Below, piece by piece: positions 3,883 through 64,000 of a stretch of DNA of 64,000 bases (position 1 is its first letter; each line of letters starts with the position of its first letter). The notes under the pieces are model-generated. The model was not told the origin of the DNA and did no database searches. It saw only the letters and a list, made by a program, of their open reading frames with translations. This DNA comes from Phycisphaerae bacterium (GTDB lineage Bacteria; Planctomycetota; Phycisphaerae; UBA1845): assembly GCA_020056715.1 (NCBI GenBank), contig JAGVHG010000040.1, positions 11,920 through 75,919 on the forward strand. The letters run 5' to 3'. Both the position numbers and the translations under genes were made by a program.

Positions 3883-3885
3883 CGG

Positions 3886-13632: not shown

Positions 13633-13735
13633 TGGCCCGTCGCTTGCGCTCCGGGTTCTGATTCGTTTCGGAATTCTGCGGGCGTAGCGATAAAGATCGA
13701 CGTAGACCCTCCCCGCTCCAAGGGGCGGGGACTCG
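13633..13735. repeat. family F/G core plus C-rich/G-rich hairpin between convergent genes
   Basis: The reverse complement of 13633-13663 reads atcagaacccggagcgcaagcgacgggcca, matching about 26 of 30 positions of the 62570 element by hand alignment. 13705-13735 (gaccctccccgc-tccaag-gggcggggactc) resembles the hairpin at 4326. Confidence 0.55.
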
Positions 13736-17919: not shown

Positions 17920-17977
17920 GAAGATAGAAGGGGCCGATCTTGCGATTCTCACCTCTCTCTTCTCTCTTCTAACTTCT
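17916..17977. repeat. nested inverted repeats between the convergent ribD and rodA stops (possible bidirectional terminator; GAAG-rich like family B)
   Basis: gtgagaa (17916-17922) pairs with ttctcac (17946-17952). gaagatagaag (17920-17930) pairs with cttctaacttc (17967-17977) with one mismatch. No clear T-run. Confidence 0.3.
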
Positions 17978-19235: not shown

Positions 19236-19261
19236 ATGTACACGGGTCGATCAATGAACCT

Positions 19262-19329
19262 CTGGTGCGAGAATGGATTCTCGCACCAGCAAGGATTCTC
19301 GCACCAACGAGGATTTTCGCACCAGCACG
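19262..19329 (+). repeat. family D element (hairpin plus three 18-nt tandem units) in the mrdA-rodA intercistronic spacer
   Basis: ctggtgcgagaat-gg-attctcgcaccag is a hairpin. It is followed by gcaaggattctcgcacca / acgaggattttcgcacca. 28 nt are identical to the reverse complement of 63246-63273 inside pilM. Confidence 0.7.
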
Positions 19330-21503: not shown

Positions 21504-22038
21504 CCGCCCCTCCCCGCGACGCTGCGCCCGCATACGAGTAACGCGGACGAGGAATCCCCAACGGTCGTGACATCCATTGCAGAACGCGGAAGGCGAACGG
21601 CGCCAATGCTGCGGTGTAAGCGGATACGACAACGCCGCCGATGAGCCAGTCGGCAAGCATCGGCCCCCGCGCTTCGTACAGCAGGTGGTAATACATCGTC
21701 CACGCCGTCCGAACCAACAGGCAGGCCGTCAGAGTAACGGCCGTCTGCGTTACCACACGGTATCGAAACAAATACTCGCGGAATGACGTGACAATTATCG
21801 CGGTCAATCCGTAGGAAAGAGCGATCACGCCGAAGCGCTCGATGGTCATGAGGTCAGCACACACACCGAGAACCCACCCGGCTGCAATCGCGTTACTCGA
21901 CCGTGCATAAAGACTCAAGAATACGACGACGATCAGCAAGAAATCCGGTCGAGCGGAGAACAGTTCAAGCCCGGGCGCCACCGCGGCTTGCAGGGTGAGC
22001 ACGAGAACGGTCAAGATCGCGAAGGTCAGCCAACGCAT
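21496..22038 (-). CDS. mreD: rod shape-determining protein MreD
   Basis: 180-aa, 5-TM protein MRWLTFAILTVLVLTLQAAV...PDFLLIVVVFLSL, positioned directly upstream of mrdA. The track ORF extends to 22473 through an overlapping frame of the HEAT gene and is not credible beyond 22038. Confidence 0.75.
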   Translation of the reverse strand: MRWLTFAILTVLVLTLQAAVAPGLELFSARPDFLLIVVVFLSLYARSSNAIAAGWVLGVCADLMTIERFGVIALSYGLTAIIVTSFREYLFRYRVVTQTAVTLTACLLVRTAWTMYYHLLYEARGPMLADWLIGGVVVSAYTAALAPFAFRVLQWMSRPLGIPRPRYSYAGAASRGGADV

Positions 22039-28071: not shown

Positions 28072-28100
28072 CCCAGCCAAACGTCACGGACAGACATCCC

Positions 28101-33285: not shown

Positions 33286-35130
33286 CTACGGGCATGCCGC
33301 CGCGTCGCCGACGCACGTCGAGTCCCATTCTGTTTCACAGCAGTAGGGATCGCTCGCGCATACGGTCTCGCAACAGGTTTGTGTAGCGCAACCGGGCGTC
33401 GCATGGACCGAGTGACAATCGCCCGCTCCTGGCACGCAGGTCAAGAAGCACATCGAGTTCGCCTCATCCACACAAGTCCCGTCCCACTCCTCAAGGCAGC
33501 AGAACGGATCGACCTTGCACACCGTGTTGCAGCAGGTCTCGTTGCAACCTGGATTGCTGTCGGGCGTACCGCAGGTTCTTGTATTCGCAGTGCATGCCGT
33601 GTAGCTTCCTTGGCAAACGCCCTTCGCCTCTTCCGCACAGTCCCCATCCCAATCCACATCACAACAGAACCGATCCAATGTACAGATCTGCGCACAGCAG
33701 CCCGAGCCCGCATCGTCGCAGCCCGGCGTCAGCGTCTGACTCGGCGACTCTGTGAAGCAGTCGCCAGTCCCGTTGGCGCAGGCATCGACGACATCGCACC
33801 CGATGGTCAACCGTCCGTCCCCCTGCTTGGTGAGGTATCCGCCTACACGGACCAGATATTGCTGCCCCGACGTCACCGCTATGGTGACGCGGGATTGCTG
33901 CTTTTTGACATCCCCCGTGCCGCCGCAGTCGTCGTCGCTGCACGCCAGCGGCGCCGCCGAGGGGCAACCACAACCGGCGTAGACCGCCAGCTTGGTGTCG
34001 TAATCACTGCCGCACAGACTTACCATCGCCGTGCACGTGTCCGTGGCCGTGTAGCAATACCAGATGTCGGAGTCCACGTTTGTTGATCCGGCGAAGTTGC
34101 ACGTCGCCGGTTCATTCGGACCGTCCGTCGTTGCCCCGGCGTTACTATAGGTCCGTGTCCCTTCGCCCACGGGAGTTGCGACGCTGCAAAGTTCGTTGGG
34201 GATTCCGCCTCCGCCACCCCCGCCTCCGCCTCCGCCTCCTCCGCCGCCACCGCCACCTGTCTCAGTCTGGCAGGTCGCCGAGCAGAGGTCTCCGTTCACC
34301 GTGTTCCCATCGTCGCACTGCTCGCCGGCGTCTACGTGCCTATCGCCGCACTTCGTGCAGTTGTTGCGGCAGCCGTCGGTGTCGACGGCATTACCGTCGT
34401 CGCATGTTTCGACTCCGGCTGGTCCATCTATGGCTTTGTTACCGCAGTACGTGCAATTGCTTCGGCACGCCCCGTGGCTGGCCGGTGCGGTGGTCTCGAA
34501 CTTGGTTCCGTCGCAATCCTCGCCGGTGTTGAGGACGCCGTTTCCACAAGTCGCGGGAGGCGGTTCAGTCTGGCAGGTCGCCCCGCAACGGTCGCCCGGC
34601 GTGGTGTTCCCATCGTCGCACTGCTCGTTTGCGGCAGTGTTCAAGATGCCGTCGCCGCAGCGGGCTGTCGTGCAGTCGGCGTTGCACGACGCCGTCTCAC
34701 CGCCGTCGTCGCATTGTTCAGATCTATCCACGATGCTGTCACCGCAAACCGGTAGCGGCCGATCAGGTTCTACCTGACAGGTCGAGGAGCAACCGTCCAA
34801 ATCCACCGTATTTCCGTCGTCGCATTGCTCGGACGAATCCAAGACGCCGTCACCGCAAACCGGCAGCGGCCGATCAGGTTCTACCTGACAGGTCGAGGAG
34901 CAACCGTCTAAATCCACCGTATTTCCGTCGTCGCATAGCTCGGAAGTATCCACGATGCCGTCACCGCAAACCGGTGAGGGTTCATTGTCGTTGCCGTTTC
35001 CTGTGTTATCGTTGGTGTTGTCCGTCCCTGGGTCGACGAGCGGGCACCCACCCATGGCCAGCGCCGTCAGTCCAGTGATTAACAAAGAAAACGAGTTACG
35101 CCGAAGCCATGCGAATGGTAACTGATACAC
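33286..35130 (-). CDS. secreted multi-domain cysteine-rich protein (Myxococcus-type Cys-rich repeats, poly-Gly linker, PPC-like domain, CC...FCC...WD..C modules)
   Basis: Signal/lipobox-like N-terminus. Repeats of CGDGxxD..EQCDDGNTxxxDGCSSTCQxE. 18 consecutive Gly. C-terminal triplicated motif (GCCAQICTLDRFCCDVDWDGDC, ETCCNTVCKVDPFCCLEEWDGTC, QTCCETVCASDPYCCETEWDSTC). Confidence 0.8.
   Translation of the reverse strand: MYQLPFAWLRRNSFSLLITGLTALAMGGCPLVDPGTDNTNDNTGNGNDNEPSPVCGDGIVDTSELCDDGNTVDLDGCSSTCQVEPDRPLPVCGDGVLDSSEQCDDGNTVDLDGCSSTCQVEPDRPLPVCGDSIVDRSEQCDDGGETASCNADCTTARCGDGILNTAANEQCDDGNTTPGDRCGATCQTEPPPATCGNGVLNTGEDCDGTKFETTAPASHGACRSNCTYCGNKAIDGPAGVETCDDGNAVDTDGCRNNCTKCGDRHVDAGEQCDDGNTVNGDLCSATCQTETGGGGGGGGGGGGGGGGGGIPNELCSVATPVGEGTRTYSNAGATTDGPNEPATCNFAGSTNVDSDIWYCYTATDTCTAMVSLCGSDYDTKLAVYAGCGCPSAAPLACSDDDCGGTGDVKKQQSRVTIAVTSGQQYLVRVGGYLTKQGDGRLTIGCDVVDACANGTGDCFTESPSQTLTPGCDDAGSGCCAQICTLDRFCCDVDWDGDCAEEAKGVCQGSYTACTANTRTCGTPDSNPGCNETCCNTVCKVDPFCCLEEWDGTCVDEANSMCFLTCVPGAGDCHSVHATPGCATQTCCETVCASDPYCCETEWDSTCVGDAAACP
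34738..34959. repeat. 111-bp (37-codon) tandem duplication inside the Cys-rich protein gene
   Basis: Units 34738-34848 and 34849-34959 differ at only a handful of positions by eye. A third, more diverged unit flanks each side. The period is divisible by 3. Confidence 0.85.
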
Positions 35131-53356: not shown

Positions 53357-53386
53357 CAGCGGCAAGGCCGGTGAGCCTTGCCGCGA
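53357..53386 (+). repeat. 30-nt hairpin module (loop variant CGGTGA)
   Basis: cag cggcaaggc cggtga gccttgccg cga. The 9-bp stem is perfect. It contains the TTG (53378) that the ORF track uses as the kinase start. Confidence 0.75.
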
Positions 53387-55564
53387 GGAGATGGTGCGCA
53401 CAGCTTGCGAAACTGGTGGAAATCATTTCGAGGGTTCCTCACCGCGGAGGAAGTGCCGCGTTGGTTCGGCCTTTCCGTAGTTCTCATCTACGTCGTGGGA
53501 ATGGGGTCCATCGCCCAGTTCGGCATCGCCCAGGCGCGGCGGGAGACGGCGATCCGTTTCCAGATTGACAGCCAATACGCGGTCAAGCTCCTCGCCGATC
53601 GAATCGAGGCCATCGAGGGCGAGGGCGCAACCGACCCGAAGTGGTTGAGCGTCTGCCAACGAGCGCTGCGGGAGTTCGCGGCCAACGTCCCCGCCAAATC
53701 CGTTCGCGTTGTTGAAGGCCGTCCTCCGGGGCGGATCATCGCCTCGACCAACCCCACGGAAACCGGGACCAGTACCACTCCCGGCGCGCCGGGAGTGGCG
53801 CGTGGGGCGCGAATCGCGGCACACCAAACGCCCTTGAGTCCGCCTGCGGCGGAGGCGAGCGGATCAACCAAGGCATTGCAACCAGGCGGGCTGGAGATCG
53901 CAACGATTTCCTCGAACGGCTCCGAAACGCGGCATCGACTCCTCCGTGCGCCGCTCCACCGTATCCATCAGAGCCGGGAGTCCGCCGCAGGCGGACGACC
54001 GGAATCGACGTACGTGGACCACGCTGCCCAGGAGGCCAATCGGGTCGCTACCGCTCCCCGCTCTGATCAAGACGCCTACCTAGAGGTCATCCTGCCCTTC
54101 GAACCGGTCGAACCGACGAGTCTTGCCAACCAGGCGCGGATGCTGGCCATCGTCCTGGCCGTGCTCGGGGCGTTGTTTGTGGTCTATCGATGTTTGCGCG
54201 AACAGCTTCGCGGACTCTCCAAGATCGCCGGCCGTCTGGAATTGCATCGAGATCGGATTGAAGACGACCTCGCCTCCCTGCGGATCGGTGACGCACTCGA
54301 TGGAGTCACCGTGGGCTGGAATGAACTCGTTGACCTGACCGAGCGACTCCAAACTAGCGTTCAGCGGACCGAGGCCAACGAGGAACTTTCCAGCGTTCTT
54401 CAACGCACAGGCGCTGGGGCGTTGTCCGAAGCGCTCAACGCCGTCCCCGACGGGCTGATGTACATCTCCGATGAAGTTCGCTTCGAGTATCTCAACTCGG
54501 CGGCCCTGCGACTACTCGGGTGGAATGCGCCAGACGCCAACGTCAGCGGCGTGGCCCGTGAGCCACGCCGTGAGAGAAACTATCCGACCCTGATCGATGC
54601 CCAGGCGAACGGACTGGGCCTGAAGCTCTTGGAATTGATTCGCGGCGCCGCCTTGCCGGAGGGCGTTTTTGAAGCGCGGACCGAGGTGCTCGAGGCCGGC
54701 GACGCCGAGGCCCACGACCTCAGTACCTACCGTGTGTGGCTGATTCCCTTGCAGCGCGCCCGTCACCACGGCGAGTGCGTCGTCGTCATCCGTGATGTGA
54801 GCCAGCAGTTTCGCGCCGACCGTGCCCGCGAGGAATTCATCGCCCAGGTGACGCACGAACTACGCACGCCGCTCACCAACATCCGGGCGTATACGGAGAC
54901 CCTTTCCAGCGGCATGTTCGAGGACCCCAAGGTCATCACCGAGTGCTACAACGTGATCACCAAGGAGACCCGCCGGCTGTCGCGTTTGGTGGAGGACATT
55001 CTGAGCGTTTCGCAGTTGGAGGTCGGCTCGATCGAGCTGCACGTGGACAGCGTTGACCTCAAGGTTTTACTGAACGACGGCGTACGCGACGTTCGGGGCC
55101 TCGCCGATGAGAAAAACATCGACGTCCAATTGGTCTTGCCCGCAAAGCTCGAACCGGTCCGCGCCGACCGCGACAAGCTCGCCGTGGTCATCAACAACCT
55201 CCTCGGCAACGCGATCAAGTACACGCCCGCCAACGGTAACGTGATGGTCGGCTGTCAGGTCGCCGCCGACGTCGTGGTGCTCACTTTCAAAGACAACGGC
55301 ATCGGAATCGACCCCTCGGAGCACACCAAGGTCTTTGAGAAGTTCCAGCGCGGCAGCAACCCGGAGGTGCAGAGCGAGTCGGGCACGGGTATCGGTCTCT
55401 ACACGGCCCGCGAGATCGTACGTCGTCACGGAGGGGACATCGAGCTGCTCAGCGAAAAGGGCAAGGGTTCGACCTTTATGGTGCGCTTGCCGCATCGCGA
55501 GAGCCGCGCCGCCGCCGTCAGCACCAACTCCCGTGAGAGTTGGGGCGGTCAGTCCGCGGTGTAA
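53378..55564 (+). CDS. sensor histidine kinase (two TM helices, repeat-colonised extracytoplasmic region, PAS, HisKA, HATPase_c)
   Basis: H-box FIAQVTHELRTPLTNI, N-box NNLLGNAIKYT, G1 DNGIGI, G2 GTGIGLYTAREIV. TM helices FGLSVVLIYVVGMGSIAQFGI and MLAIVLAVLGALFVVY. The start is uncertain (TTG 53378, TTG 53405 or GTG 53453). Confidence 0.88.
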   Translation: MPRGDGAHSLRNWWKSFRGFLTAEEVPRWFGLSVVLIYVVGMGSIAQFGIAQARRETAIRFQIDSQYAVKLLADRIEAIEGEGATDPKWLSVCQRALREFAANVPAKSVRVVEGRPPGRIIASTNPTETGTSTTPGAPGVARGARIAAHQTPLSPPAAEASGSTKALQPGGLEIATISSNGSETRHRLLRAPLHRIHQSRESAAGGRPESTYVDHAAQEANRVATAPRSDQDAYLEVILPFEPVEPTSLANQARMLAIVLAVLGALFVVYRCLREQLRGLSKIAGRLELHRDRIEDDLASLRIGDALDGVTVGWNELVDLTERLQTSVQRTEANEELSSVLQRTGAGALSEALNAVPDGLMYISDEVRFEYLNSAALRLLGWNAPDANVSGVAREPRRERNYPTLIDAQANGLGLKLLELIRGAALPEGVFEARTEVLEAGDAEAHDLSTYRVWLIPLQRARHHGECVVVIRDVSQQFRADRAREEFIAQVTHELRTPLTNIRAYTETLSSGMFEDPKVITECYNVITKETRRLSRLVEDILSVSQLEVGSIELHVDSVDLKVLLNDGVRDVRGLADEKNIDVQLVLPAKLEPVRADRDKLAVVINNLLGNAIKYTPANGNVMVGCQVAADVVVLTFKDNGIGIDPSEHTKVFEKFQRGSNPEVQSESGTGIGLYTAREIVRRHGGDIELLSEKGKGSTFMVRLPHRESRAAAVSTNSRESWGGQSAV
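53776..53797. repeat. perfect 22-nt palindrome, sharing a 19-mer with 56558-56576
   Basis: cactcccggcgcgccgggagtg. The 19-mer tcccggcgcgccgggagtg recurs in the HD-GYP gene. Both are read in the same frame as PGAPGV. Confidence 0.75.
53820..53859 (+). repeat. composite hairpin module inside the kinase ORF
   Basis: cac accaaacgc ccttga g tccgcctgcggcgga ggcgag. Translated as HQTPLSPPAAEAS. Confidence 0.8.
53969..53998 (+). repeat. 30-nt module variant (CAG-N9-[tccgcc-gca-ggcgga]-CGA) inside the kinase ORF
   Basis: cag agccgggag tccgccgcaggcgga cga. Same head, tail and total length as the canonical modules. Confidence 0.6.
54044..54070 (+). repeat. short dispersed repeat (family G variant) inside the kinase ORF
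   Basis: 24 of 27 positions identical to the intergenic copy at 28101-28127. Confidence 0.6.
54544..54573 (+). repeat. 30-nt hairpin module inside the kinase ORF
   Basis: cag cggcgtggc ccgtga gccacgccg tga. The 9-bp stem is perfect. Read as SGVAREPRRE. Confidence 0.8.
55519..55548 (+). repeat. 30-nt hairpin module inside the kinase ORF 3' end
   Basis: cag caccaactc ccgtga gagttgggg cgg. 8 of 9 stem pairs. Read as STNSRESWGG. Confidence 0.78.
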
Positions 55565-55629: not shown

Positions 55630-56025
55630 ATGGCCAAGATTCTTATTGTCGATGATGACGCCCATATCGTCCGCGTCCTGTCCATGTGGCTGGGTCGGCA
55701 CGGCTACGACGTGGTCACGGCGCGCAACGGCGAGGCGGCTTTGGCGACGCTGGATCGCGAAGAGGTCGACATGATCATCTCGGACATGAACATGCCGGGT
55801 CTGGACGGGGTCGGACTGGCGAAGGCGGTTCGAGCGAAAAGCGGCCCCACGATTCCCATTCTCATGTTGACGGCCCGTTGCGATCAGGAACGTCTCAGTG
55901 AACAGCTTGCGGCGTATGGTGTCCGCGTATACCCCAAACCGTTCCTCCCGTCGCAGTTGGTAGTGGAAATCAACTCCGCCTTCGGCGGATTAGGCGTCGC
56001 CGCCAGTGAGGGTTCGGTATCATGA
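55630..56025 (+). CDS. single-domain CheY-like response regulator
   Basis: MAKILIVDDDAHIVRVLSMWL...VDMIISDMNMPGLDG...PKPF. 131 aa. Its stop forms an ATGA overlap with the next gene. Confidence 0.88.
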   Translation: MAKILIVDDDAHIVRVLSMWLGRHGYDVVTARNGEAALATLDREEVDMIISDMNMPGLDGVGLAKAVRAKSGPTIPILMLTARCDQERLSEQLAAYGVRVYPKPFLPSQLVVEINSAFGGLGVAASEGSVS

Positions 56026-57521
56026 CTCGTCCAAAAAAACAGCATGCTGTTCCGACTTCTCCCGGCGCCCCGGCGACGTCCAAGATCGAAGCATCAGACG
56101 CACGGCCCGTGAGCCGTGCGGCGAGGGAAGGCCCGAAGATCGAAGAACCCGACCGTTTGGGCCTTCGATCTTTGATCTTTGATCTTCGATCTTCGGGTGA
56201 CCTGACCGCGTTGCTGCCGGCTCTGTCGTCGTCGGTCGAACAGTTGATGACCGAGCACCAGGGCATGGCCGACGAATTGCTCTGCCTGTACGAACAGCTC
56301 GGCATCATCTTTGAGATCACCCGCAAGCTCGCCGGGGTTCATAACGAATCCGATGTTCTCGACCTTTTTCTAATCAGCCTGCGACGCAGTTTTGAGGAAC
56401 GGACCGTCTTTGCCGCCCACAGCCGCCCCCGCGGATGGGTGTTGGAAGGGAAACGCGACCGTCATGCGAGCCGACCGGGAAGGGAGGGTCCAGATGGGAG
56501 CGGCGACACGATGGTGGTCAATGAATGGTTGCGCGGACTGCTCGACCGTGCCGCGAATCCCGGCGCGCCGGGAGTGATCGTCGAATCGGCGTTGCCGGGG
56601 GCCATGCCCGGCGCTATCGCCGAGGCCATGATCGCCCCGGTGATCTCCGGCGACGCCCTTGTCTGCTCCCTCGTTCTCCTCCGCACCGAAAAGACGCCTG
56701 CGTTCCGGGCGAGTGAGATGATGTTGATCGAGTCCCTCACCACCTTCTGCGGCGACCTGATCCGCAGCCATCGGCTGGTGCGCGAGCTTCGCGAGATGTC
56801 TCTCACCATGGTGCGGGCCTTGGTCAACGCCATCGATCAGAAGGACGAATACACCTGCGGTCATTCCCTGCGCGTGGCGTACTACGCCACGACGCTGGGT
56901 CAACACCTCGGCTTGGGTGAGGTCGATCTCCAGATGCTCCAGTGGGCCGCGCTCCTCCACGACGTGGGGAAAATCGGGATTCGCGACAACGTCCTTAAGA
57001 AGGAAGGCAAGCTCACTCCCGAAGAGTTCGGGCATATCCAGGAACACCCCGTCCGCAGCCACAAGGTCGTGCAGGAAGTTCCGCAGCTTCTCCGAGCGTT
57101 AGACGGCATTCTTCATCACCACGAACGATACGACGGCTCCGGATACCCCGCAGGGCTGAAGGGGGAACAGATCCCGTACCAGGCACGGATCATTCAGATC
57201 GCCGATGTGTTTGACGCTCTGACCTCCAACCGCTCTTACCGTAAGGCCTTCGACTGGCAGCGGGCCTTAGGAATCCTTCAAGAAGAGGCCGGCAAAACCG
57301 TCGACCCGTGTTTGCAGAAGATCTTCGACACCCTCATCCGCGAGACGCTGAAAGACGAGCCGATGGCATGGGAACGCATGGTCGAACACGCCAACCGTTT
57401 CATGCAGGGTCTGGATGCTCCCGACGACCGAGAGTCAGACGACGCGACCGTCAGACGACGCGACCAAGGCGGGAGCGTCCGGGCGCCGGGAGTCGGCGGA
57501 AATAGAAGGAGAATGACATGA
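56022..57521 (+). CDS. HD-GYP domain protein (predicted c-di-GMP phosphodiesterase) with a GAF-like N-terminal region
   Basis: HSLRVAYYA, LLHDVGKIGI, HHERYDGSGYP. The first ~75 codons consist of repeat elements. An alternative start at ATG 56247 would leave them intergenic. Confidence 0.85.
   Translation: MTRPKKQHAVPTSPGAPATSKIEASDARPVSRAAREGPKIEEPDRLGLRSLIFDLRSSGDLTALLPALSSSVEQLMTEHQGMADELLCLYEQLGIIFEITRKLAGVHNESDVLDLFLISLRRSFEERTVFAAHSRPRGWVLEGKRDRHASRPGREGPDGSGDTMVVNEWLRGLLDRAANPGAPGVIVESALPGAMPGAIAEAMIAPVISGDALVCSLVLLRTEKTPAFRASEMMLIESLTTFCGDLIRSHRLVRELREMSLTMVRALVNAIDQKDEYTCGHSLRVAYYATTLGQHLGLGEVDLQMLQWAALLHDVGKIGIRDNVLKKEGKLTPEEFGHIQEHPVRSHKVVQEVPQLLRALDGILHHHERYDGSGYPAGLKGEQIPYQARIIQIADVFDALTSNRSYRKAFDWQRALGILQEEAGKTVDPCLQKIFDTLIRETLKDEPMAWERMVEHANRFMQGLDAPDDRESDDATVRRRDQGGSVRAPGVGGNRRRMT
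56082..56197. repeat. family B inverted-repeat element with a nested 30-nt hairpin module (56095-56124)
   Basis: Perfect 14-bp arms cccgaagatcgaag (56132-56145) and cttcgatcttcggg (56184-56197). The nested module is cag acgcacggc ccgtga gccgtgcgg cga. Confidence 0.78.
56558..56576. repeat. palindromic 19-mer shared with 53779-53797
   Basis: tcccggcgcgccgggagtg, identical in both genes. Confidence 0.75.
57434..57480 (+). repeat. family E element (16-bp tandem duplication plus a 27-mer shared with pilM)
   Basis: gtcagacgacgcgacc occurs twice (57434-57449 and 57450-57465). gacgacgcgaccaaggcgggagcgtcc (57454-57480) is identical to 63580-63606. Both are read as RRDQGGSV. Confidence 0.8.
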
Positions 57522-58915
57522 CGCTGACACTTCTATTGCCGTGGTTTCCGATCCTCTTGGCCGTCGGCGTCGGCGGACGGTTGTTGGGGCGCAGTCGCGG
57601 CTTCGCCCTCGGCCTGGTGTGCGGGATGTTTTGGATCGTCTTGGTTCAGGCAACCGCCGGAACCGGAGTGTGGAGGCAGCCGTGGGTGGTCGTGACCATG
57701 CTCATCGGCGCCGCGGCGATTTTTCTGATTGGCGGGTGGGCCGGTTCCGCCGAAGGCGGACCGCTCGACGATCTCGCGCCCATCCGAACCCGGAGCGCAA
57801 GCGACGGGTCAAGACCCCGCGCTGGCGCTTGGGGTTCGGATTCCACGGAGCGCTCCTCCGATGAGACGACGATCGCCCTCGACCGGTTCGCAACCGTGAT
57901 CCAGCAGTTCGACGACTGGCTTGTCGAACACCGCGACGATGCCGACCCTTGGCCGTTGTTCGGCGAGTTCATTCGCGGCGCCCTGTATCAATGTTGCAAG
58001 GCGACGCACGTAAAACCATTTCGCTTACTCAGCGAAGGCGAAGAGCTGACGCCGCTCCAATCGTCCCGGTTGGAGCCGGACCCATTTACGGAAGGTAGGC
58101 GAGTTTCCGCTCGGCAGGGGATTCTAGGTCATGTGGTTACGAGCGGTCGATCCTACGTAGAAGGCGACCGGACCCAGGGTGAGCTGATCGAGCAACTAGC
58201 CCAGGCCTGCCCTGAACCGATCGTGTGGTGCTTCGCCATCACCCAAGGCACCCAAAGACTCGGTGCGGTGACGGCGGGTCAACTGGACATCGTTCCCGCA
58301 GACAACCTGGCGCTGCTTCGCGCCGTCGAACAACTTGTCTCGCAATGTTGGTGCCTGCTCGCTGAAACGGTTCACAGCCGCACCGCCGGTCAAGATGACC
58401 CAGGCTCGGGACTCTATAACCGGACCGCGTTCCTCCAGGTCGCAGAGCAATCGTTGCGCGAATCGTACGCTCAAGGTGAACCGGTGGCGATCGCCGTGAT
58501 CGTCGTGGAAGGGATGCGCGAGCTGAACGACGCCGGAAGATGGGAGGTCGCCGATGAACTGGTCCGCGAAGTCGCCGACTCCCTACGCCGCAAGATTCGC
58601 ATGGATGACCGCCTCGGGCGTTTCGACGGTTCGCGTTTCATCTGGCTGCTACGCCGCGTAGACGCCGAGTTGGCGTCGCTGATTGTCAAGCAAGTGATAT
58701 CGCGTCTGACGACGTTGTGCGGCGACCGTAGCCGATGGTCCGCCTCTGGCGGAGCGATCACTGTGCGTTGCGGCGTGGTCGGTAGCGGTACCGGTAGTAG
58801 AAACCCCGACCTCCGCACGCTGGTCTCCCATGCCTTGGTGCAGTCTCGCCGTGCAAGGCTCGAACATGTGACCATCGCCGGCGAACTGGACGCGGCGGAA
58901 ATGTCGAAACGCTGA
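57518..58915 (+). CDS. membrane-anchored GAF-GGDEF protein with a degenerate active site (DGSRF) and an intact RxxD I-site
   Basis: Two N-terminal TM helices and a GAF-like middle region. The GGDEF-fold pattern is GLYNRTAFLQVAEQ...VAIAVIVVEGMRELND...RKIRMDDRLGRFDGSRFIWLL. It has an ATGA overlap with the HD-GYP gene. Confidence 0.8.
   Translation: MTLTLLLPWFPILLAVGVGGRLLGRSRGFALGLVCGMFWIVLVQATAGTGVWRQPWVVVTMLIGAAAIFLIGGWAGSAEGGPLDDLAPIRTRSASDGSRPRAGAWGSDSTERSSDETTIALDRFATVIQQFDDWLVEHRDDADPWPLFGEFIRGALYQCCKATHVKPFRLLSEGEELTPLQSSRLEPDPFTEGRRVSARQGILGHVVTSGRSYVEGDRTQGELIEQLAQACPEPIVWCFAITQGTQRLGAVTAGQLDIVPADNLALLRAVEQLVSQCWCLLAETVHSRTAGQDDPGSGLYNRTAFLQVAEQSLRESYAQGEPVAIAVIVVEGMRELNDAGRWEVADELVREVADSLRRKIRMDDRLGRFDGSRFIWLLRRVDAELASLIVKQVISRLTTLCGDRSRWSASGGAITVRCGVVGSGTGSRNPDLRTLVSHALVQSRRARLEHVTIAGELDAAEMSKR
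57782..57841 (+). repeat. family F 60-bp palindromic element inside the GGDEF-protein ORF
   Basis: Perfect 10-bp termini atccgaaccc / gggttcggat. 53 of 60 positions identical to 62570-62629 inside pilM. Read as IRTRSASDGSRPRAGAWGSD. Confidence 0.85.
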
Positions 58916-58970
58916 AACACCGAAACGCCGAAATTTCGGCTTTTCCCCATTTCGGCGTTTTCGCATTTGG
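58897..58970. repeat. family A ~74-nt palindromic element between the GGDEF gene and the STAS gene
   Basis: ggaaatgtcgaaacgctgaaacaccgaaacgccgaaatttcggcttttccccatttcggcgttttcgcatttgg. It covers the last 6 codons and the stop of the GGDEF gene. Confidence 0.85.
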
Positions 58971-58977
58971 ATAGCCT

Positions 58978-59313
58978 ATGAAGATCGAACAGCAACAGGT
59001 CGGAACGGTGGATGTCTTCACCCCCATAGGGCCTCTGGTGGACCAGGACGGAGAGACCTTTTCGAAGGCGCTCCTCACCAGGGTGAAGTCGCCCAACCCC
59101 CGCATCGTGTTGGCCATGCAGGAAGTCCCCTATGTAGACAGCAATGCTCTGGAGGGCTTACTCACCGCCACTGATGAACTCAACGAACGCGCCTCCAGCC
59201 TCAAGCTGGCCACCGTTACCCCGACCTGTCGGGAGATCTTCGAACTGACCGGATTGTCGCCACGGTTTCGTTTCTTCAAAGACGTGCAGGACGCGGTGAA
59301 GAGCTTTTTGTAG
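58978..59313 (+). CDS. STAS-domain protein (anti-sigma-factor antagonist / SpoIIAA-like)
   Basis: 111 aa. The pattern VDVFTPIGPLVDQD...LAMQEVPYVDSNALEGLL...LKLATVTPTCREIFELTGL matches the STAS fold, with the conserved Ser in YVDSNALEGL. Confidence 0.82.
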   Translation: MKIEQQQVGTVDVFTPIGPLVDQDGETFSKALLTRVKSPNPRIVLAMQEVPYVDSNALEGLLTATDELNERASSLKLATVTPTCREIFELTGLSPRFRFFKDVQDAVKSFL

Positions 59314-59386
59314 GAGAAAGCGGAAACGCCGAAACACCGAAACGCCGAATTTTCGGCTTTTCCCCATTTCGGCGTTTTCGCATTTA
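59313..59386. repeat. family A ~74-nt palindromic element between the STAS gene and the ATPase gene
   Basis: The 55-nt core (59331-59385) differs from 58914-58968 at one position. Confidence 0.85.
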
Positions 59387-59390
59387 GCCG

Positions 59391-61157
59391 ATGCCGAATC
59401 TAACCATCGAAACCGCAGTCCGACTCGGCGACCAGCTCATCCGCGACGGCGTGGTCACGGCTGAGCAACTCGCGGACGCCTTGGCGCGTCAGTCCGCCGC
59501 AGGCGGAGCGGTGCGTATCGGCAAGGCGCTCATGGACGTCGGCGCCATCTCCTCCGCCGCCCTCGTTGGGGCGCTCGCCCGACGGCTTAACGTGAAGGGA
59601 ACTACGCTCCGTCACGGTCTCATCGACCCCAAAGTCGCTAAGTCCATCCCCAAGGAGGAGGCCGAACGGCTGCGCGTGCTGCCCCTGTTCCGGGTGCGCG
59701 ACGAACTCACCGTGGCCATGGTCGATCCGCAATCTCTGCCCGTCCAAGATCGGCTTCGGTCGCTCACCGGCTGCGCGATTCGCTCAGTTCTCGTTCTCGA
59801 GGAAAACCTCGCCGAGTACCAGCAGAAATACCTCGCCGCCGAGGTCACCGTCGATTCCTTCCTCGCCTCGATGGAAGAGTCCGACATTCAGATCACCGAG
59901 TCGGAAGCGATCGACGAAGGCCCGATCACCGACCTCGACAAGATGGTCGAGGGCAGCCCGATCGTAAACCTCATCAACCTCGCCATACTCACCGCCCTCC
60001 GTGCCGGGGCCTCCGACGTGCACATCGAGCCGGACCGCGACGGAACGCACATCCGCTATCGCATCGACGGCGAGTTGCGCGAGATGCTCAAGCCCCCGCG
60101 GGGGATGCACGCCGCGATCGTCTCCCGCGTCAAGGTCATCGGGCGGATGGACATCGCCGAAAAGCGGCTCCCTCAGGAGGGTCGCGTGCATCTCGTCGCT
60201 GACCGTCGCGAGATTGACCTGCGTGTCTCCTCCATGCCCACCGTGCTCGGCGAAAAGATCGTGCTCCGCATTCTCGACAAGGCCAATCTCTCCTTCGAGC
60301 TGGAAACCCTCGGAGTTCGAGGACAGGACCGTTGGGCGATCGAGGCCATGATCCACAGCCCCTACGGCCTGATGCTCGTCACCGGGCCTACCGGCTCCGG
60401 AAAGACCACGACACTATATTCCGCTTTGGATCTCCTCCGCGACGAGTCCACCAACATCGTCACCATCGAGGATCCGGTGGAGTATCAACTGCCGCTCGTC
60501 AACCAGATTCAGGTCAACGAACGAGTGGGGCTGACCTTCGTCCGCGCCCTGCGGTCCATCCTCCGACAAGACCCCGATGTCATCATGGTCGGAGAAATTC
60601 GCGATCAGGACACCGCCCGCGTGGCGATTCAGAGCGCCCTCACCGGCCACTTGGTCCTCTCCACCCTGCACACCAATGACTGCCCCGGCGGCATCATGCG
60701 CCTGGTGGACATGGGCATCGAGCCGTTTCTCCTCACCGCTTCCATCCTCGGCTTCGTCGCCCAGCGGCTCGCCCGCACGATCTGTGCATCTTGCAAAACC
60801 TCCTACTATCCGCCACCCAATTTGCTCAAGCAGGTCGGCTGGGAGAATCGCACCAGCGAACTCTTCCAAAAGGGCGAAGGCTGCCGGGAGTGCAACAACA
60901 CCGGGTTCCGCGGGCGCATCGGCATTTACGAGGTGATGCTGCTGGACGCGGAACTCAAGCAGATGATTCAGAAGAACCCGTCGGAAACCGACATCCGCGT
61001 CTACCTCGCCCAGACCGGATGGCGGACGTTGCGGGAAAAGGCCCTCGACCTGGTCGAGCGCGGTGAATCCACGCTCGAGGAAGTGCTGCGGGTGACGCGC
61101 TCCGAGGCGCTCGACGTCAGTGATCCGTCGGGCGCCGGAAGAGTGGGTGAATCATGA
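59391..61157 (+). CDS. GspE/PilB/MshE-family secretion ATPase with an N-terminal MshEN-type domain
   Basis: Walker A GPTGSGKTTT, Walker B VIMVGEIRD, His box TGHLVLSTLHTN, and the tetra-Cys cluster CASCK...CRECNNTG. The N-terminus is RLGDQLIRDGVVTAEQLADALARQ, then RIGKALMDVGAISSAALVGALARR. Confidence 0.9.
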   Translation: MPNLTIETAVRLGDQLIRDGVVTAEQLADALARQSAAGGAVRIGKALMDVGAISSAALVGALARRLNVKGTTLRHGLIDPKVAKSIPKEEAERLRVLPLFRVRDELTVAMVDPQSLPVQDRLRSLTGCAIRSVLVLEENLAEYQQKYLAAEVTVDSFLASMEESDIQITESEAIDEGPITDLDKMVEGSPIVNLINLAILTALRAGASDVHIEPDRDGTHIRYRIDGELREMLKPPRGMHAAIVSRVKVIGRMDIAEKRLPQEGRVHLVADRREIDLRVSSMPTVLGEKIVLRILDKANLSFELETLGVRGQDRWAIEAMIHSPYGLMLVTGPTGSGKTTTLYSALDLLRDESTNIVTIEDPVEYQLPLVNQIQVNERVGLTFVRALRSILRQDPDVIMVGEIRDQDTARVAIQSALTGHLVLSTLHTNDCPGGIMRLVDMGIEPFLLTASILGFVAQRLARTICASCKTSYYPPPNLLKQVGWENRTSELFQKGEGCRECNNTGFRGRIGIYEVMLLDAELKQMIQKNPSETDIRVYLAQTGWRTLREKALDLVERGESTLEEVLRVTRSEALDVSDPSGAGRVGES

Positions 61158-62365
61158 TTTTGACCTACGACGCCATCGACGCCGGCGGTCGCTCGACGAC
61201 GGATTCGATCGAGGCCCAGAATACTAAGGAAGCCGTCGAACAGCTCCGCCGCCGCGGCCTGTACGTCAAGAAAATAGCCGAGCCGCGGGTTTCAGCCCGC
61301 GTAGCGAAACCGAATCTTCCTGCGTCGCTGCGTCTGCCGCTCAAACTGCTGGTTCAAATCACGCGTCAGATGGCGATGTTGCTCCGCGCCGGCAGCGAGC
61401 TGGTTCCGGCCATTTCCGCCATCCAGCGGCAGATGACGAAGCCCAACCACGCGGCCTTGCTCGGGAAGCTCGTCAACGACCTCGAAGACGGAATGACCCT
61501 CACGGACACGCTGCGGAAGCACCCCCGTACCTTCGACGCGATCTACTGCGCCATCGTCGCCGCGGGCGAAGCCAGCGGAACCCTCACCGAGATGTTAGAG
61601 CGGCTTTCGGTCATCGTGGGGAAGCGCCGGGCCCTGCGCAAGAAAATCCTCGGCGCCCTTGCCTATCCGGCGCTGCTGATCGCGATGTGTTTTCATATCA
61701 TGCTTGTGGTGTTGTTCTTTGTGCTCCCGCGGTTCAACGCCATGTTCGTTCAGCTTAACGTGGAAACTCCCGCCACCACGAAAGCGCTGTTGTCCGTGTC
61801 CGTGGTCCTGCGCGGCTATTGGCCGGTGCTGCTCTTCGTCACCGCCGCACTCGCCGGAGCGGCGGCCTGGGCGTCTACCAGCCGGGCTGGACGACAATGG
61901 CTCAGCAACGTGCAGCTTTTCATCCCCGTCGTGGGACGACTGCGATCACGCCTCATCCAAGGCCAGATTTTTCGGACCATGGGAATGCTCCTGGAGAGCC
62001 GCGTCGACGTGCTCGATACATTAGATTTAGTCCGCGAGTCTACCCTCAACGGTCGCTTTCAGAAACTGTTCAACGACCTCCAGGAGGCCGTGACTTCCGG
62101 CGGGAGGCTCAGCACCGCGTTCGAGGCGTCCACCATCGTCGAGCCTTATATTTGTCAGGCCATCTACACCGGCGAGGACAGCGGCAGTCTCGGCGCCTCC
62201 ATGTCCTTCTGCGCCGATATGCTCGACGAGTCCAATGAAGAGTTCATCAGTATGGTCACGAAACTGATCGAGCCGTTGATTCTCATCATTATGGGCTTCG
62301 TGGTCGGCGGAGTGGCGATTTCACTGTTCGTGCCGTTGTTCGATATGACCTCCGCGATCAAGTAG
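61154..62365 (+). CDS. pilC: type II secretion / type IV pilus platform protein (GspF/PilC family)
   Basis: 403 aa with two T2SSF repeats and three TM segments. ATGA overlap with the ATPase gene. Confidence 0.88.
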   Translation: MILTYDAIDAGGRSTTDSIEAQNTKEAVEQLRRRGLYVKKIAEPRVSARVAKPNLPASLRLPLKLLVQITRQMAMLLRAGSELVPAISAIQRQMTKPNHAALLGKLVNDLEDGMTLTDTLRKHPRTFDAIYCAIVAAGEASGTLTEMLERLSVIVGKRRALRKKILGALAYPALLIAMCFHIMLVVLFFVLPRFNAMFVQLNVETPATTKALLSVSVVLRGYWPVLLFVTAALAGAAAWASTSRAGRQWLSNVQLFIPVVGRLRSRLIQGQIFRTMGMLLESRVDVLDTLDLVRESTLNGRFQKLFNDLQEAVTSGGRLSTAFEASTIVEPYICQAIYTGEDSGSLGASMSFCADMLDESNEEFISMVTKLIEPLILIIMGFVVGGVAISLFVPLFDMTSAIK

Positions 62366-62378
62366 CGAGACTCTGGGT

Positions 62379-63659
62379 ATGATGGTCGCACTGAAAGCTT
62401 TGCAACGCACCAGCTGGCGCGGCAGTCGAAGCCGGATCGGTCTGGACATAGGCGCAGCTGGTATCCGCGCCGTCCAGTTGAACCGCCAAGCACAGCCGCG
62501 CGGCCCAAGTAGCCCCCGCAGCCTGGACGGTTACGTGGTGACGAACGCCGCCTGTGGCGACCGGAGCCCGTCCGAACCCGGAGCGCAAACGACGGGCCAG
62601 GACCACGCACTAGCGCTTGGGGTTCGGATTCCACCGTTGCTGCCCCGTCAGGTCGAGGATTGTCTGCGCCGAGCAAACGTCCGCGGGAAAGCCGTCGCCG
62701 CCGCCCTGGCGACTCCCGACGTGGAGTTTCATACCCTTGAGTTGCCCGCCGCCGTTTTTCAGGCCGACGAGGTCGAGGCCGCTCAGATCGTGCGATTCGA
62801 AGTGGAACGCCTCATGTCCAACTCGCACGCTCCCGTCGAGACCCGGCATTGGCGACTGCCGCAGACGAACGTGACGGCCCCGAACGCCATCGGCGCGGGC
62901 GCCGCACATGAAATCATCAACGCAACGATCAAAGTCTGTGCCGAGGCGGGGTTGACCTGCACCGATCTGGATACAACCGCCACGGCGCTCAGTCGGTTCG
63001 GCGCTGTGTTGCAGAGCCGACCCAAAGACCAGATATGGGGAGTTCTGGACGTTGGCGATCGTCAAGCCCGCTTGGTGCTTTGCCTCGACGATACGCCGAT
63101 TTTGGTGCGGACGGCGGGCGCCGGTGGACGTGCCTGGACCCAACGCATCGCCGACGCCCTGCAAGTGAGCTTCAAGGCCGCGGAAATCCACAAACGCGAC
63201 CACGGGATCGCCCTGACCGGTCGTGCACTGGTGCGAGAATCTGCACTGGTGCGAGAATCCATTCTCGCACCAGGGGCCCCCCGCCTCCCCCATTATCAAG
63301 GGGGGAAAGAGGGGGTTCGAAGCGAATTGGCCTCGTTGATTCTGGGTGCCGTACGCGCGGACCTCAACGATCTGGCCTCCGAGGTCAAGCGATCGTACGA
63401 GTATGTCCTGAGTTGTTACCCGGGGAGACAGGCCGCTGACTTGGTACTTTGCGGCGGCGGTTCGCTCCTGCACTATTTTCCCGAGTTCCTGGGCAATGCC
63501 TTGGGCATACCCGTGCGTCGAGCGTCGAGCTATCTCCAGAGCGAATCGTGTCGACTTCGCTTCGCCGCCGAGAGGGTCGGACGACGCGACCAAGGCGGGA
63601 GCGTCCACGCTCCCCTCGAAGTCCTCGCCGTGGCCGTGGGACTCGCCATATCAGAGTAG
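62379..63659 (+). CDS. pilM: PilM-like actin-fold pilus assembly protein carrying three in-frame repeat-element insertions
   Basis: N-terminus IGLDIGAAGIRAVQL, then ...VLDVGDRQARLVL..., then C-terminal LVLCGGGSLLHYFPEFL. It is 426 aa; removing the element-derived segments leaves roughly the usual PilM length. Confidence 0.75.
   Translation: MMVALKALQRTSWRGSRSRIGLDIGAAGIRAVQLNRQAQPRGPSSPRSLDGYVVTNAACGDRSPSEPGAQTTGQDHALALGVRIPPLLPRQVEDCLRRANVRGKAVAAALATPDVEFHTLELPAAVFQADEVEAAQIVRFEVERLMSNSHAPVETRHWRLPQTNVTAPNAIGAGAAHEIINATIKVCAEAGLTCTDLDTTATALSRFGAVLQSRPKDQIWGVLDVGDRQARLVLCLDDTPILVRTAGAGGRAWTQRIADALQVSFKAAEIHKRDHGIALTGRALVRESALVRESILAPGAPRLPHYQGGKEGVRSELASLILGAVRADLNDLASEVKRSYEYVLSCYPGRQAADLVLCGGGSLLHYFPEFLGNALGIPVRRASSYLQSESCRLRFAAERVGRRDQGGSVHAPLEVLAVAVGLAISE
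62570..62629 (+). repeat. family F 60-bp palindromic element inside pilM
   Basis: gtccgaaccc...gggttcggat. 53 of 60 positions identical to 57782-57841. It is read in a different frame from that copy (SEPGAQTTGQDHALALGVRI). Confidence 0.85.
63225..63316 (+). repeat. family D element (2 x 18-nt tandem plus hairpin) followed by a C-rich/G-rich hairpin, inside pilM
   Basis: gcactggtgcgagaatct / gcactggtgcgagaatcc / attctcgcaccag. Then ccccccgcctccccc-attatcaa-ggggggaaagaggggg. Read as ALVRESALVRESILAPGAPRLPHYQGGKEG. Confidence 0.8.
63580..63606 (+). repeat. family E 27-mer inside the pilM 3' end
   Basis: Identical to 57454-57480. Confidence 0.8.
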
Positions 63660-63666
63660 GGAACGT

Positions 63667-64000
63667 ATGGTCACTGTGAACCTCATTCCGGAAAGCGTCC
63701 AGGCGGCGCAAGCCCGACGCCGGCATATCAAGTGGTGGGCGGCATGCCTTGCCGTCACCACCGTAGTCGCGGTCGTGCCCGTAGGCGCCCACTTGATGCA
63801 ACACTTACGCATTGATGAGTTGCACGCCCAAAATTACAAATTCCAGACCGACCTCGCCGCCGCGCGGGTCGAACTGAAGACCGCAACCGCGGCAGCGAAC
63901 GATTCCTTCCTGCGTATCGAACGGGCCAAGGCTTTACGCACCAAACGGGCCTGGTCGGACATGTTGGCGCTGATCGGCTCCTGCCTTCCGAAGGACTGCT
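63667..64000 (+). CDS. pilN: PilN-like pilus assembly protein, N-terminal part (runs off the right edge)
   Basis: MVTVNLIPESVQAAQARRRHIKWWAACLAVTTVVAVV... The NLIP motif, one TM helix and then a coiled-coil-like segment are typical of PilN, and it sits directly after pilM. Confidence 0.7.
   Translation, partial: MVTVNLIPESVQAAQARRRHIKWWAACLAVTTVVAVVPVGAHLMQHLRIDELHAQNYKFQTDLAAARVELKTATAAANDSFLRIERAKALRTKRAWSDMLALIGSCLPKDC

Follow-up and report, generated by a model that had tools for sequence, protein, structure and literature searches.

Results

The pilM locus

The DNA analysed, a stretch of 64,000 nt referred to here as the window, closes with pilus genes in the order pilB-pilC-pilM-pilN, and the same pil gene order was found in the relatives L045, L048, L050, and L174. 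The genes of the locus are as follows.

59391..61157, T2SSE (pilB), upstream of pilM
61154..62365, T2SSF (pilC), upstream of pilM
62379..63659, + strand, pilM ORF, 426 aa, predicted actin-like (ASKHA) pilus assembly protein
63667..64000, + strand, start of pilN (MVTVNLIPE..., then a transmembrane segment), 7 nt past the pilM stop codon

Comparison with orthologues indicated that the second ATG of the ORF, at 62382, is the probable true start of pilM. The window pilN encodes the putative PilM-binding motif NLIP at its NH2-terminus, and PilB and PilC are nearly constant in length across the same loci.

A preliminary description of this DNA had read the ORF as an over-long PilM-like protein of 426 aa, a reading borne out by profile, fold, and orthologue alignments. 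The Pfam profile PF11104 (PilM_2), which that description had suggested as a check, scored 54.2 bits and so passed its threshold of 27, with the alignment limited to residues 92 to 275 and stopping just short of the D/G insert described below. The TIGR01175 score of 53.5 bits lay far under the cut-off of 133, and we therefore regard the window protein as a member of the PilM family from a divergent branch. A phmmer search matched it to the PilM structure 2YCH (5.6e-11). The AlphaFold2 model had a pLDDT of 88.4 and a pTM of 0.88, and all of the 10 top Foldseek matches of this model in the PDB were PilM (5EOY, 5EQ6, 3JC8, 5EOU, 2YCH; E about 1e-21), with PilM structures ranked above FtsA and MreB. 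Pfam score, predicted fold, and gene order agree in identifying the ORF as a genuine pilM.

Inserts in pilM and their relatives in the window

Members of a set of 121 PilM homologues are typically 360 to 375 aa long. Orthologues without inserts measure 365 to 375 aa, an insert-free pilM corresponding to 370 aa, and the excess in the window is therefore approximately 56 to 60 residues. The earlier estimate, about 75 extra residues over an expected 350 or so, was thus right as to over-length and too high as to size. The excess had been ascribed to three repeat elements, namely F, D together with a C/G hairpin, and E. Families F, D, and E are indeed present, but we counted at least five inserts and at least four families, with the C/G hairpin at 63274-63317 better described as a separate dispersed family (G), as judged from its sequence relatives, than as a part of D.

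62493..62525, + strand, insert 0, 11 codons (QPRGPSSPRSL, aa 39-49), lacking in most orthologues, with a pLDDT dip at aa 38-50
62566..62634, + strand, family F, inverted dimer of two 26-nt hairpin half-sites (62571-62596 and 62603-62628)
63228..63273, + strand, family D, hairpin with a 13-bp stem (63246-63258 / 63261-63273) and a duplicated 18-nt left arm (63228-63245)
63274..63317, + strand, family G, C/G-rich nested hairpin GGGGCCCCCCGCCTCCCCCATTATCAAGGGGGGAAAGAGGGGGTT, encoding GAPRLPHYQGGKEG
63576..63606, + strand, family E, 30-nt non-palindromic unit GTCGGACGACGCGACCAAGGCGGGAGCGTC(C), encoding VGRRDQGGSV (aa 400-409)

A BLAST search of pilM against the rest of the window returned significant matches for exactly three segments, in agreement with the partners first reported for F (the GGDEF gene), D (the mrdA-rodA spacer at 19262), and E (the 3' end of the HD-GYP gene at 57454). 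Segment 62566-62634 (F) matched 57778-57846 with 90% identity over 69 nt (E=2e-17) and also 13633-13658; segment 63229-63273 (D) matched 19262-19306 in inverted orientation with 91% identity over 45 nt (E=3e-10); and segment 63580-63606 (E) matched 57454-57480 at 27 of 27 nt (E=4e-9). Insert 0 had no repeat relative in the window, where a pattern search matched only the insert itself and BLAST gave the same result, and a repeat origin was rejected for it on account of the missing second copy. The partner copies are as follows.

57454..57480, + strand, E copy at the 3' end of an HD-GYP-type gene (HD/HD_5, 56022..57521), in the same frame as in pilM (RRDQGGSV)
57778..57846, + strand, F copy in the GGDEF gene (57518..58915, aa 87-110), in a frame different from that of the pilM copy
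19259..19325, + strand, D hairpin with two extra right arms at 18-nt spacing
13633..13661, - strand, single F half-site, intergenic, 93-96% identical to the left arm in pilM

The spacer that separates rodA (17949..19235) from PBP2/mrdA (19338..21656), 103 nt in length, contains the D partner. The neighbouring HK, HD-GYP, GGDEF, and Lnt genes also carry in-frame inserts of these families, and of all dispersed copies in the window about one in two lies within a gene.

Each pilM insert appears as a whole-codon gap in the codon alignment with orthologues from related genomes, a comparison that the preliminary description had proposed, and none contains a stop codon; the inserts are therefore all in frame, as had been claimed. 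The F insert encodes aa 63-86, which form the linker from strand 51-61 to helix 88-99 in the AlphaFold2 model and adjoin the 1A/1C groove. The D insert encodes VRESALVRESILAP, and the peptide ALVRESALVRESILAPGAPRLPHYQGGKEG corresponds to PilM residues 283-312. The E insert represents a net gain of 30 nt relative to orthologues with an empty site, and its site follows the LPQT motif. The predicted insert-junction peptides of PilM are GRALVRESALVR, PHYQGGKEGVR, and VGRRDQGGSVHAPLEV.

Modelling of the inserts as loops had likewise been suggested, and the result agreed with that picture. Low-confidence stretches were limited to aa 1-18, 38-50, 62-87, 281-310, and 396-412. At each insert the predicted pLDDT dipped to 51-81, with flanks remaining above 94, as does the core. 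The F, D, G, and E inserts thus derive from repeats, keep the reading frame, and coincide with low-confidence loops, and the model predicts that the inserts occupy surface or loop positions compatible with the fold.

Structure of the repeat elements

The elements of families F, D, and G are palindromic over their entire length, and their hairpin potential exceeded that of shuffled controls (z -2.8 to -6.5). The best-preserved F palindrome is the copy at 57778..57846 (DNA folding energy -27.1 kcal/mol, z -6.5); in the pilM copy the inner palindrome is degraded and part of the pairing is lost (-17.1 kcal/mol, z -2.8). The 92-nt stretch 63225-63316, comprising the D hairpin and G, gave -28.8 kcal/mol (z -5.2).

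Alignment of the 16 F half-sites in the window placed 75.8% of cells in pairs, compared with 29-35% when the 3' partners were slid. Changes on both sides were seen at five pairs, and two pairs showed compensatory changes (CG in eight copies, GC in seven); none of 500 shuffles attained the observed covariation score. A GNRA-like loop and a tandem G.A/A.G mismatch are conserved across copies. With the half-sites arranged as inverted dimers in both the GGDEF gene (57783-57808 with 57815-57840) and pilM (62571-62596 with 62603-62628), F is, on sequence evidence, a REPIN-like inverted dimer of a covariation-supported hairpin. Its tail is conserved as ATC(A/C)GA(G/A)CC. A GTAG or CGTC tag was rejected, given that neither is conserved among the 16 half-sites, CGTC being present in five.

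Family E gave no hairpin signal relative to shuffled sequence either as a single unit or as a composite (z -1.7 to +1.5), and a hairpin was rejected for it. Copies of E nest within themselves, and two independent pairs of empty and filled sites, each with a 30-nt gain, revealed no target-site duplication and no terminal inverted repeats. At Rfam gathering thresholds none of the repeats was matched, the sole match being a tRNA at 52817-52890. The + strand of 58800-64000, pilM included, contained no terminator-like site, and an internal terminator formed by the D/G hairpins was rejected on this basis. No transposase of any kind, RAYT included, was found among the approximately 30 ORFs scanned of the 48 predicted in the window.

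Distribution of the inserts among relatives

F is present at the same pilM position in L045, L048, and L001 and is common to relatives from both subclades, D is common to the window and nearer relatives, and E is common to the window and its nearest relative; three layers of insertion in pilM can be dated by means of relatives. A single hairpin occupies the D site in L172, L173, and L175, the window and L174 have the extra arm, and no insert is present there in L045, L048, and L050. G at 63274-63317 was found in the window only, the closest relatives lacking it, and resembles a replacement patch (35 nt in place of 8 nt, with more changes downstream) rather than a clean insertion. Copies related to G (L001:7599, L048:6545, L048:11692) lie within pilN or at the 3' end of GGDEF genes. 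The F copy at 57778..57846 is identical at 58 of 58 positions to L001:1405, and F copies are 97-100% identical between genomes whose pilM cores are merely 74% identical. Among GTDB representatives, the pilM most similar to that of the window was no more than 67-68% identical.

L048 and L176 carry the 30-nt E unit at exactly the same nucleotide, and the closest sampled relatives of both have an empty site. At about ten further pilM sites, orthologues contain additional inserts of these families, which also occur at other sites of pilM and pilN in relatives. L048 and L001 have an E-like block in place of a conserved PilM helix, so that, as judged from these sequences, insertions in this gene family are not all obviously harmless. 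An assembly artefact was rejected, given that different samples, assembled independently, yielded these same inserts (for example P0001, in three samples, and P0004, in two).

Members of family E were also detected in metagenomes. The pattern scan returned both true copies and probable chance 17-mers, and matches were kept if the upstream 11 nt agreed at 7 or more positions. Among the intragenic copies in this sample, approximately 15 of 28 were in the pilM frame and 22 of 28 in sense orientation, a tally in which four pilM copies misclassified by the script were reassigned by hand and for which automated genic and frame calls are noisy, being misled by shadow ORFs in GC-rich DNA.

Discussion

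Persistence of the inserts in pilM

The pilM of the window is very probably a functional gene that has been repeatedly colonised by small dispersed repeat elements. We propose that several repeat families of 18 to 60 nt (F, D, G, and E) are scattered through the genome in this uncultured Phycisphaerae clade, with the majority of copies between genes or at gene ends. A copy that arrives within a gene would escape selection if it is divisible by three in length, lacks a stop codon, and falls in a permissive surface loop, and a copy so retained would then be translated as an additional flexible loop. The conservation of frame suggests that the inserts are translated, probably as neutral or nearly neutral additions.

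It is very unlikely that the blocks are instead selected as protein (disordered linkers and short binding motifs, RRDQGGSV among them, would be examples) and spread by recombination rather than as selfish DNA. Both window copies of E share one frame, the metagenomic copies show the frame and sense bias given above, and AlphaFold2 predicted a helix for VRESALVRESIL, all of which would fit such selection. The identity of the copies, however, is one of DNA, synonymous positions included (27/27 nt; 58/58 nt between genomes), and roughly half of the copies of E, along with many of F and D, lie between genes. The frame of F differs between pilM and the GGDEF gene, some copies of E use a different sense frame or are read in antisense, and the covariation of the F hairpin is a property of nucleic acid and not of a peptide.

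Whether the pilus scaffold tolerates the inserts or the gene is decaying had been left as a question by the preliminary description. That pilM is an incipient pseudogene, open by chance, might be suggested by the presence of five inserts within one 1.3-kb gene, by the degraded inner palindrome of its F copy, and by relatives in which the pilM ORF is split or fused or the conserved helix is lost. The pilM core is nevertheless under purifying selection, with a dN/dS of 0.13-0.28 over 360 core codons, a pairwise average that is blind to very recent loss of function in the lineage of the window. All family-invariant columns are kept, including those of the putative nucleotide-binding motifs (GLDIG, LDVGD, and CGGGS are nearly invariant in the family), the adjacent pilB, pilC, and pilN are intact, the length of every insert is divisible by three and none has a stop codon, and F, D, and E stay in frame among diverged, independently assembled relatives. 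Given the confident AlphaFold2 core, the confinement of low confidence to the inserts, and the dN/dS values, we conclude that pilM tolerates the inserts; decay is very unlikely, and the pseudogene reading was rejected on dN/dS and motif conservation.

Very improbable, too, is a role of the hairpins as RNA or DNA in the operon (mRNA stability or processing, pausing, protein binding, or ribosome bypassing) with an incidental peptide. In its favour, F, D, and G fold far better than shuffled controls, the F loop and tandem mismatch are conserved, and a modulating effect of REPs on mRNA stability and termination is known (PMC3733652). Against it, pairing is partly lost in the pilM copy of F, the + strand of 58800-64000 has no terminator-like site, Rfam gave no match, and all inserts keep the frame, which bypassing would not need; an RNA-level side effect of the hairpins may exist alongside this evidence.

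Probable mobility of the elements

Under colonisation of a functional gene, the elements are probably mobile, the evidence for mobility being circumstantial given that no transposase was found among the scanned ORFs and no target-site duplication at the E sites. Recurrent insertion at the same site, for which precise loss or allele transfer would be the alternatives, and self-nesting point to an enzyme- or structure-guided process over random duplication. A tentative extension, which we consider possible but on balance doubtful, is that this Phycisphaerae clade harbours an active population of very short, coding-compatible mobile elements of a type not yet described, with E as the clearest candidate. 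E would then integrate at defined sites, namely its own centre, the apex of other hairpins, and a pilM nucleotide that is identical between two lineages, and, since its length is a multiple of three, the reading frame would always be preserved. If this extension is true, whole operons (pilM, pilN, HK, HD-GYP, GGDEF) are being remodelled, including PilM-PilN fusions resembling GspL.

Relation to known repeats

In-frame Rickettsia palindromic elements (RPEs) and intragenic REPs have already been described (PMC10969869, PMC3733652), and these are the closest known parallels. As portrayed in PMC10969869 and PMC5896051, which draw on Ogata et al. (2000 Science, 2002 Genome Res), RPEs are dispersed palindromic repeats that lie in frame in unrelated, otherwise conserved genes, are read through as an extra peptide judged to be compatible with the fold, and in some cases are common to related species. 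The comparison is one of functional class and not of homology family, and sequence homology is not expected. F, D, and G are multicopy, dispersed, and capable of forming hairpins in the manner of RPEs, whereas E has no hairpin signal, and codon alignments and empty and filled sites place the inserts in frame in a conserved gene and show them to be absent from orthologues. The RPEs of these accounts span about 100-150 bp, and their hosts are obligate intracellular Alphaproteobacteria, whereas the elements described here are of 18-60 nt, at least four unrelated families are found in a single gene, family E is non-palindromic, and the host is a free-living environmental Phycisphaerae.

Intragenic REPs with GTAG or CGTC tags were described by Di Nocera et al. 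(2013; PMC3733652) in species including Opitutus terrae of the PVC superphylum. These are 20-40-nt palindromes, single or in inverted dimers, mostly near gene 3' ends, with a minority within ORFs that add 20-30 residues, sometimes twice per gene. The F half-site is likewise an imperfect palindrome within this size range, with a conserved structure. It differs in its tail, with no GTAG and no conserved CGTC tag, and the present repeats differ in that about half of the dispersed window copies are intragenic and in that pilus and signalling genes are targeted rather than DNA-repair genes. F also resembles the REPINs of REPIN-RAYT systems (Bertels & Rainey 2011; PMC3116915) in its two inverted hairpin units with a short spacer between them and in its sequence conservation of 97-100% across genomes despite diverged host genes. 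No RAYT was found among the window ORFs scanned, however, and REPINs are described as extragenic (PMC3116915), whereas copies here lie in frame within genes. MITEs (ERIC, BOX, Coxiella QMITE), as outlined in PMC10969869, PMC5896051, and PMC2759123, are likewise small and non-autonomous, and on occasion they lengthen or interrupt an ORF in frame. In those outlines they usually span 100-400 bp and have terminal inverted repeats and target-site duplications; the present elements are far shorter, and no duplication was seen at empty and filled E sites.

Implications

Coding palindromic repeats were first described as unique to Rickettsia and were later seen sporadically as intragenic REPs. The present case extends them, at high density, to a free-living lineage of the PVC group, with at least four families in one pilus gene and inserts at about ten further sites in its orthologues. 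The pattern of inserts constitutes a natural map of the loops of PilM that tolerate insertion. The repeat families, above all the 30-nt E with its recurrent same-site insertion, are tractable candidates for new miniature mobile DNA, and length outliers and "hypothetical" low-complexity segments among Planctomycetota proteins may often be derived from repeats.

Identification of pilM and location of its extra residues

The ORF under study encodes a protein of 426 amino acids and lies among the following genes of the window.

59391..61157, T2SSE/PilB-type ATPase gene, upstream of pilM
61154..62365, T2SSF/PilC gene, directly preceding pilM
62379..63659 (+), pilM
from 7 nt past the pilM stop codon, pilN-like ORF, its product beginning MVTVNLIPE followed by a membrane segment

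The pilM product scored 54.2 bits against Pfam PilM_2 (cut-off, 27), matched Thermus PilM (2YCH) at 5.6e-11 with phmmer, and had solved PilM structures as its top Foldseek ranks, with FtsA and MreB lower, in agreement with the PilM-like assignment made in the preliminary description. Its TIGR01175 score was below the cut-off, and the protein thus represents a divergent PilM branch. A search of 5.8 billion proteins yielded 121 homologues with a typical length of 360–375 amino acids, the closest being 58–76% identical over the full length (up to 84% in partial alignments); those with a source name all came from metagenome-assembled genomes of Phycisphaerae, Phycisphaerales or Planctomycetes. The taxonomy from a GTDB scan, in which the top locus was 67% identical, agreed with this search. 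The lengths of PilB (584–592 amino acids) and PilC (403–417) were nearly constant in the pilM loci of relatives.

Extra residues were located from protein and codon alignments with P0009, an insert-free orthologue of 370 amino acids. The surplus residues corresponded to whole-codon gaps in P0009, confirming that the inserts are in frame.

Extra residues of PilM, with net length relative to P0009
Residues 11–15, N-terminal block, TSWRG: ~5 aa, partly offset
Residues 39–49 (62493–62525), Insert 0, QPRGPSSPRSL: 11 aa
Residues 63–86, family F: ~12 aa
Residues 283–312, families D and G: 21 aa
Residues 400–409, family E: ~10 aa

The F, D (with its C/G hairpin) and E blocks had been named as the source of the excess, and this held; the total is ~56 amino acids relative to the insert-free form, not the ~75 proposed. 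The PilM_2 alignment covers only residues 92–275 and stops immediately before the D/G insert.

BLAST comparison of the gene with the rest of the window gave exactly three segments with significant matches, which far exceed chance.

62566–62634: matches 57778–57846, inside the GGDEF gene; 90% over 69 nt, E 2e-17
63229–63273: matches 19262–19306, inverted, rodA-PBP2 spacer; 91% over 45 nt, E 3e-10
63580–63606: matches 57454–57480, 3' end of the HD/HD_5 gene; 27/27 nt, E 4e-9

The three elements and all three partner sites were as first described. That account had missed Insert 0, for which no repeat relative was found in the window, and the C/G hairpin (63274–63317, inside pilM) proved to be a separate family, G.

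Repeat families

Family F consists of a 26-nt unit arranged as an inverted dimer. The 16 aligned units, all from the window, share the tail ATC(A/C)GA(G/A)CC as well as a stem of 8 bp, which is capped by a GNRA-like loop and contains a conserved tandem G.A/A.G mismatch. Two stem pairs alternate (C-G in 8 copies, G-C in 7), the covariation score was reached by none of 500 shuffles, and pairing fell from 76% to ~30% when the 3' partners were slid. Folding energies were −27.1 kcal/mol (z −6.5) for the GGDEF copy and −17.1 kcal/mol (z −2.8) for the pilM copy, the weaker fold indicating that the latter is partly degraded. An F-type half-site (24271–24299) is also present in frame in the linker of Lnt, the apolipoprotein N-acyltransferase, at amino acids 209–218 between the LNT_N and CN_hydrolase domains; its partner, 28095–28123, is intergenic.

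In family D the hairpin has a stem of 13 bp, CTGGTGCGAGAAT..ATTCTCGCACCAG, and one arm is duplicated with an 18-nt period both in pilM and in the rodA-PBP2 spacer. Near-identical copies of G were found in the relatives' loci L001 and L048, inside pilN of each; the GGDEF gene of L048 has one as well, at its 3' end.

Family E showed no hairpin signal in folding tests. A metagenome scan recovered ~36 distinct true copies, which define the 30-nt unit GTC(A/G)GACGA(C/G)(G/C)CGACC(A/G)AGG(A/C)GGGAG(C/G)GTC. In the commonest intergenic form one unit is nested at the centre of another, often at the apex of a C-rich/G-rich hairpin. Among 28 genic copies, which are not phylogenetically independent, ~15 used the frame that encodes RRDQGGSV, 7 used a second sense frame and 6 were antisense, after four script-misclassified pilM copies had been corrected by hand. 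This skew fits a tolerance filter on the encoded peptide, or strand bias.

Genic copies of the dispersed repeats occur in the Lnt linker, the histidine kinase, HD-GYP and GGDEF genes and, three times, in pilM, with a further one at 4363 near an uncertain start codon. Of the non-genic copies, six are clearly intergenic, one lies over a gene end (58906–58968) and one (53284) is inside a doubtful 99-aa ORF.

Other repeats were also seen in the window. The STAS gene (58978..59313) is flanked on both sides, at 58890–58976 and 59315–59401, by a palindromic element of 63–69 nt in which GAAACGCC units repeat every 8 nt; further copies lie ahead of the histidine kinase gene (53275–53345) and near 3.9 kb (3872–3930). 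The histidine kinase gene (53378..55564) has three insert blocks relative to orthologues, and its insert 53815–53859 is 91% identical to 52756–52800, an intergenic hairpin adjoining a tRNA (52817–52890). The 111-nt tandem repeats at 34703–34975, in the gene for a cysteine-rich DUF4215 protein (33286..35130, −), reflect protein-domain repetition of the ordinary kind and have no relation to the dispersed families.

Tolerance of the inserts

The preliminary description had left undecided whether the inserts are tolerated or the gene is decaying. From an alignment of 114 homologues, AlphaFold2 gave a model with a mean pLDDT of 88.4 and a pTM of 0.88, its core blocks scoring above 94; low values were confined to amino acids 1–18, 38–50, 62–87, 281–310 and 396–412, exactly the insert positions. 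All nearly invariant columns of the family are kept, including the nucleotide-binding motifs GLDIG, LDVGD and CGGGS. Over 360 ungapped core codons compared with five orthologues, dN/dS was 0.13–0.28 at a dS of 0.32–1.6 (Nei-Gojobori). Given this constraint, the intact columns and the confident core, a pseudogene is unlikely, although function may have been lost very recently. F, D and E are in frame also in relatives whose sequences come from independent assemblies of other samples, indicating that pilM tolerates its inserts. The evidence thus favours tolerated insertions in a functional window pilM over decay.

Not all insertions in the family look harmless: in the orthologues L048:10001–11248 and L001:6001–7155 an E-like peptide, GTVIRTDRGGRV, takes the place of a conserved helix, LLPRQVEDCLRRAN.

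Insertion history among relatives

Core identities of pilM divide the relatives into subclade A (window, L173, L174, L045, L048) and subclade B (L176, L177, L001). The D site is empty in L045, L048 and L050, carries a single hairpin (+18 nt) in L172, L173 and L175, and has an extra arm (+18 nt) in both L174 and the window; only the window has G there (net +27 nt), an event that resembles a replacement patch. These stepwise states indicate that the insertions were layered in time.

F occurs in pilM of four loci (window, L045, L048, L001) but not in that of L174, L176, L177 or L050. Copies of F retain 97–100% identity where the pilM cores of the genomes compared share only 74%, and the window GGDEF copy (57783–57840) matches L001:1405–1462 at 58/58 nt. 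Such a pattern points to re-insertion, to gene conversion or to the element itself being constrained. The L045 and L048 copies at the position orthologous to the window GGDEF copy are only 83% identical to it.

A 30-nt E unit occurs at the identical nucleotide, after ...ACG and before NNC GTG, in pilM of L048 (~10427–10456; subclade A) and L176 (subclade B). In their nearest relatives (window ~62861, L177 and L001) this position is empty, and comparison of filled with empty sites revealed no flanking target-site duplication. Two independent insertions at one site are the simplest reading.

About 10 further insertion sites were found in pilM across orthologues. The F-bearing linker is a hot spot, L173 holding there an extra D hairpin and pieces matching window 56087–56198 at 93–97%. 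The 25-aa N-terminal extension of HD-GYP is built from repeat pieces (56022–56200), and the same pieces, 93–97% identical, lie inside L173 pilM (L173:3300–3470). In L172:1–1269 and L175:1220–2779, pilM and pilN were called as a single fused ORF. The L172 DNA has a repeat block in place of the pilM-pilN stop/start junction, and the resulting putative PilM-PilN fusion would have a GspL-like architecture unless an internal pilN start remains.

Discussion

The pilM inserts are repeat-derived, keep the frame and coincide with predicted loops of a protein whose core evolves under purifying selection. They may represent small non-autonomous mobile or copy-prone elements, and selection would then act as a filter, sparing an insertion only where it is free of stops, has a length of 3n and falls in a permissive loop. 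Neither a transposase nor a RAYT gene was found among the ~30 of 48 predicted window ORFs scanned.

The inserts resemble Rickettsia palindromic elements (cited in PMC10969869 and PMC5896051) and the GTAG/CGTC REPs located inside genes of Opitutus terrae, R. conorii and Thauera (PMC3733652). The architecture of F is REPIN-like (PMC3116915), but the GTAG and CGTC tags are absent; given this and the lack of a RAYT among the scanned ORFs, we did not assign F to the REPIN family. The repeats are much shorter than MITEs, and E, the sole family with comparable empty and filled sites, differs from MITEs also in lacking a target-site duplication. A full-text search for work that connects such repeats with Planctomycetes or Phycisphaerae yielded only a general REP survey, and no described counterpart was found for E, a non-palindromic, self-nesting 30-nt unit recurrent at one site.

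In-frame selfish repeats are themselves known. The present case adds a new phylum to them and is unusual in the density with which several tiny families occupy a single pilus gene. It would gain importance if E turned out to be a novel kind of site-specific mobile element.
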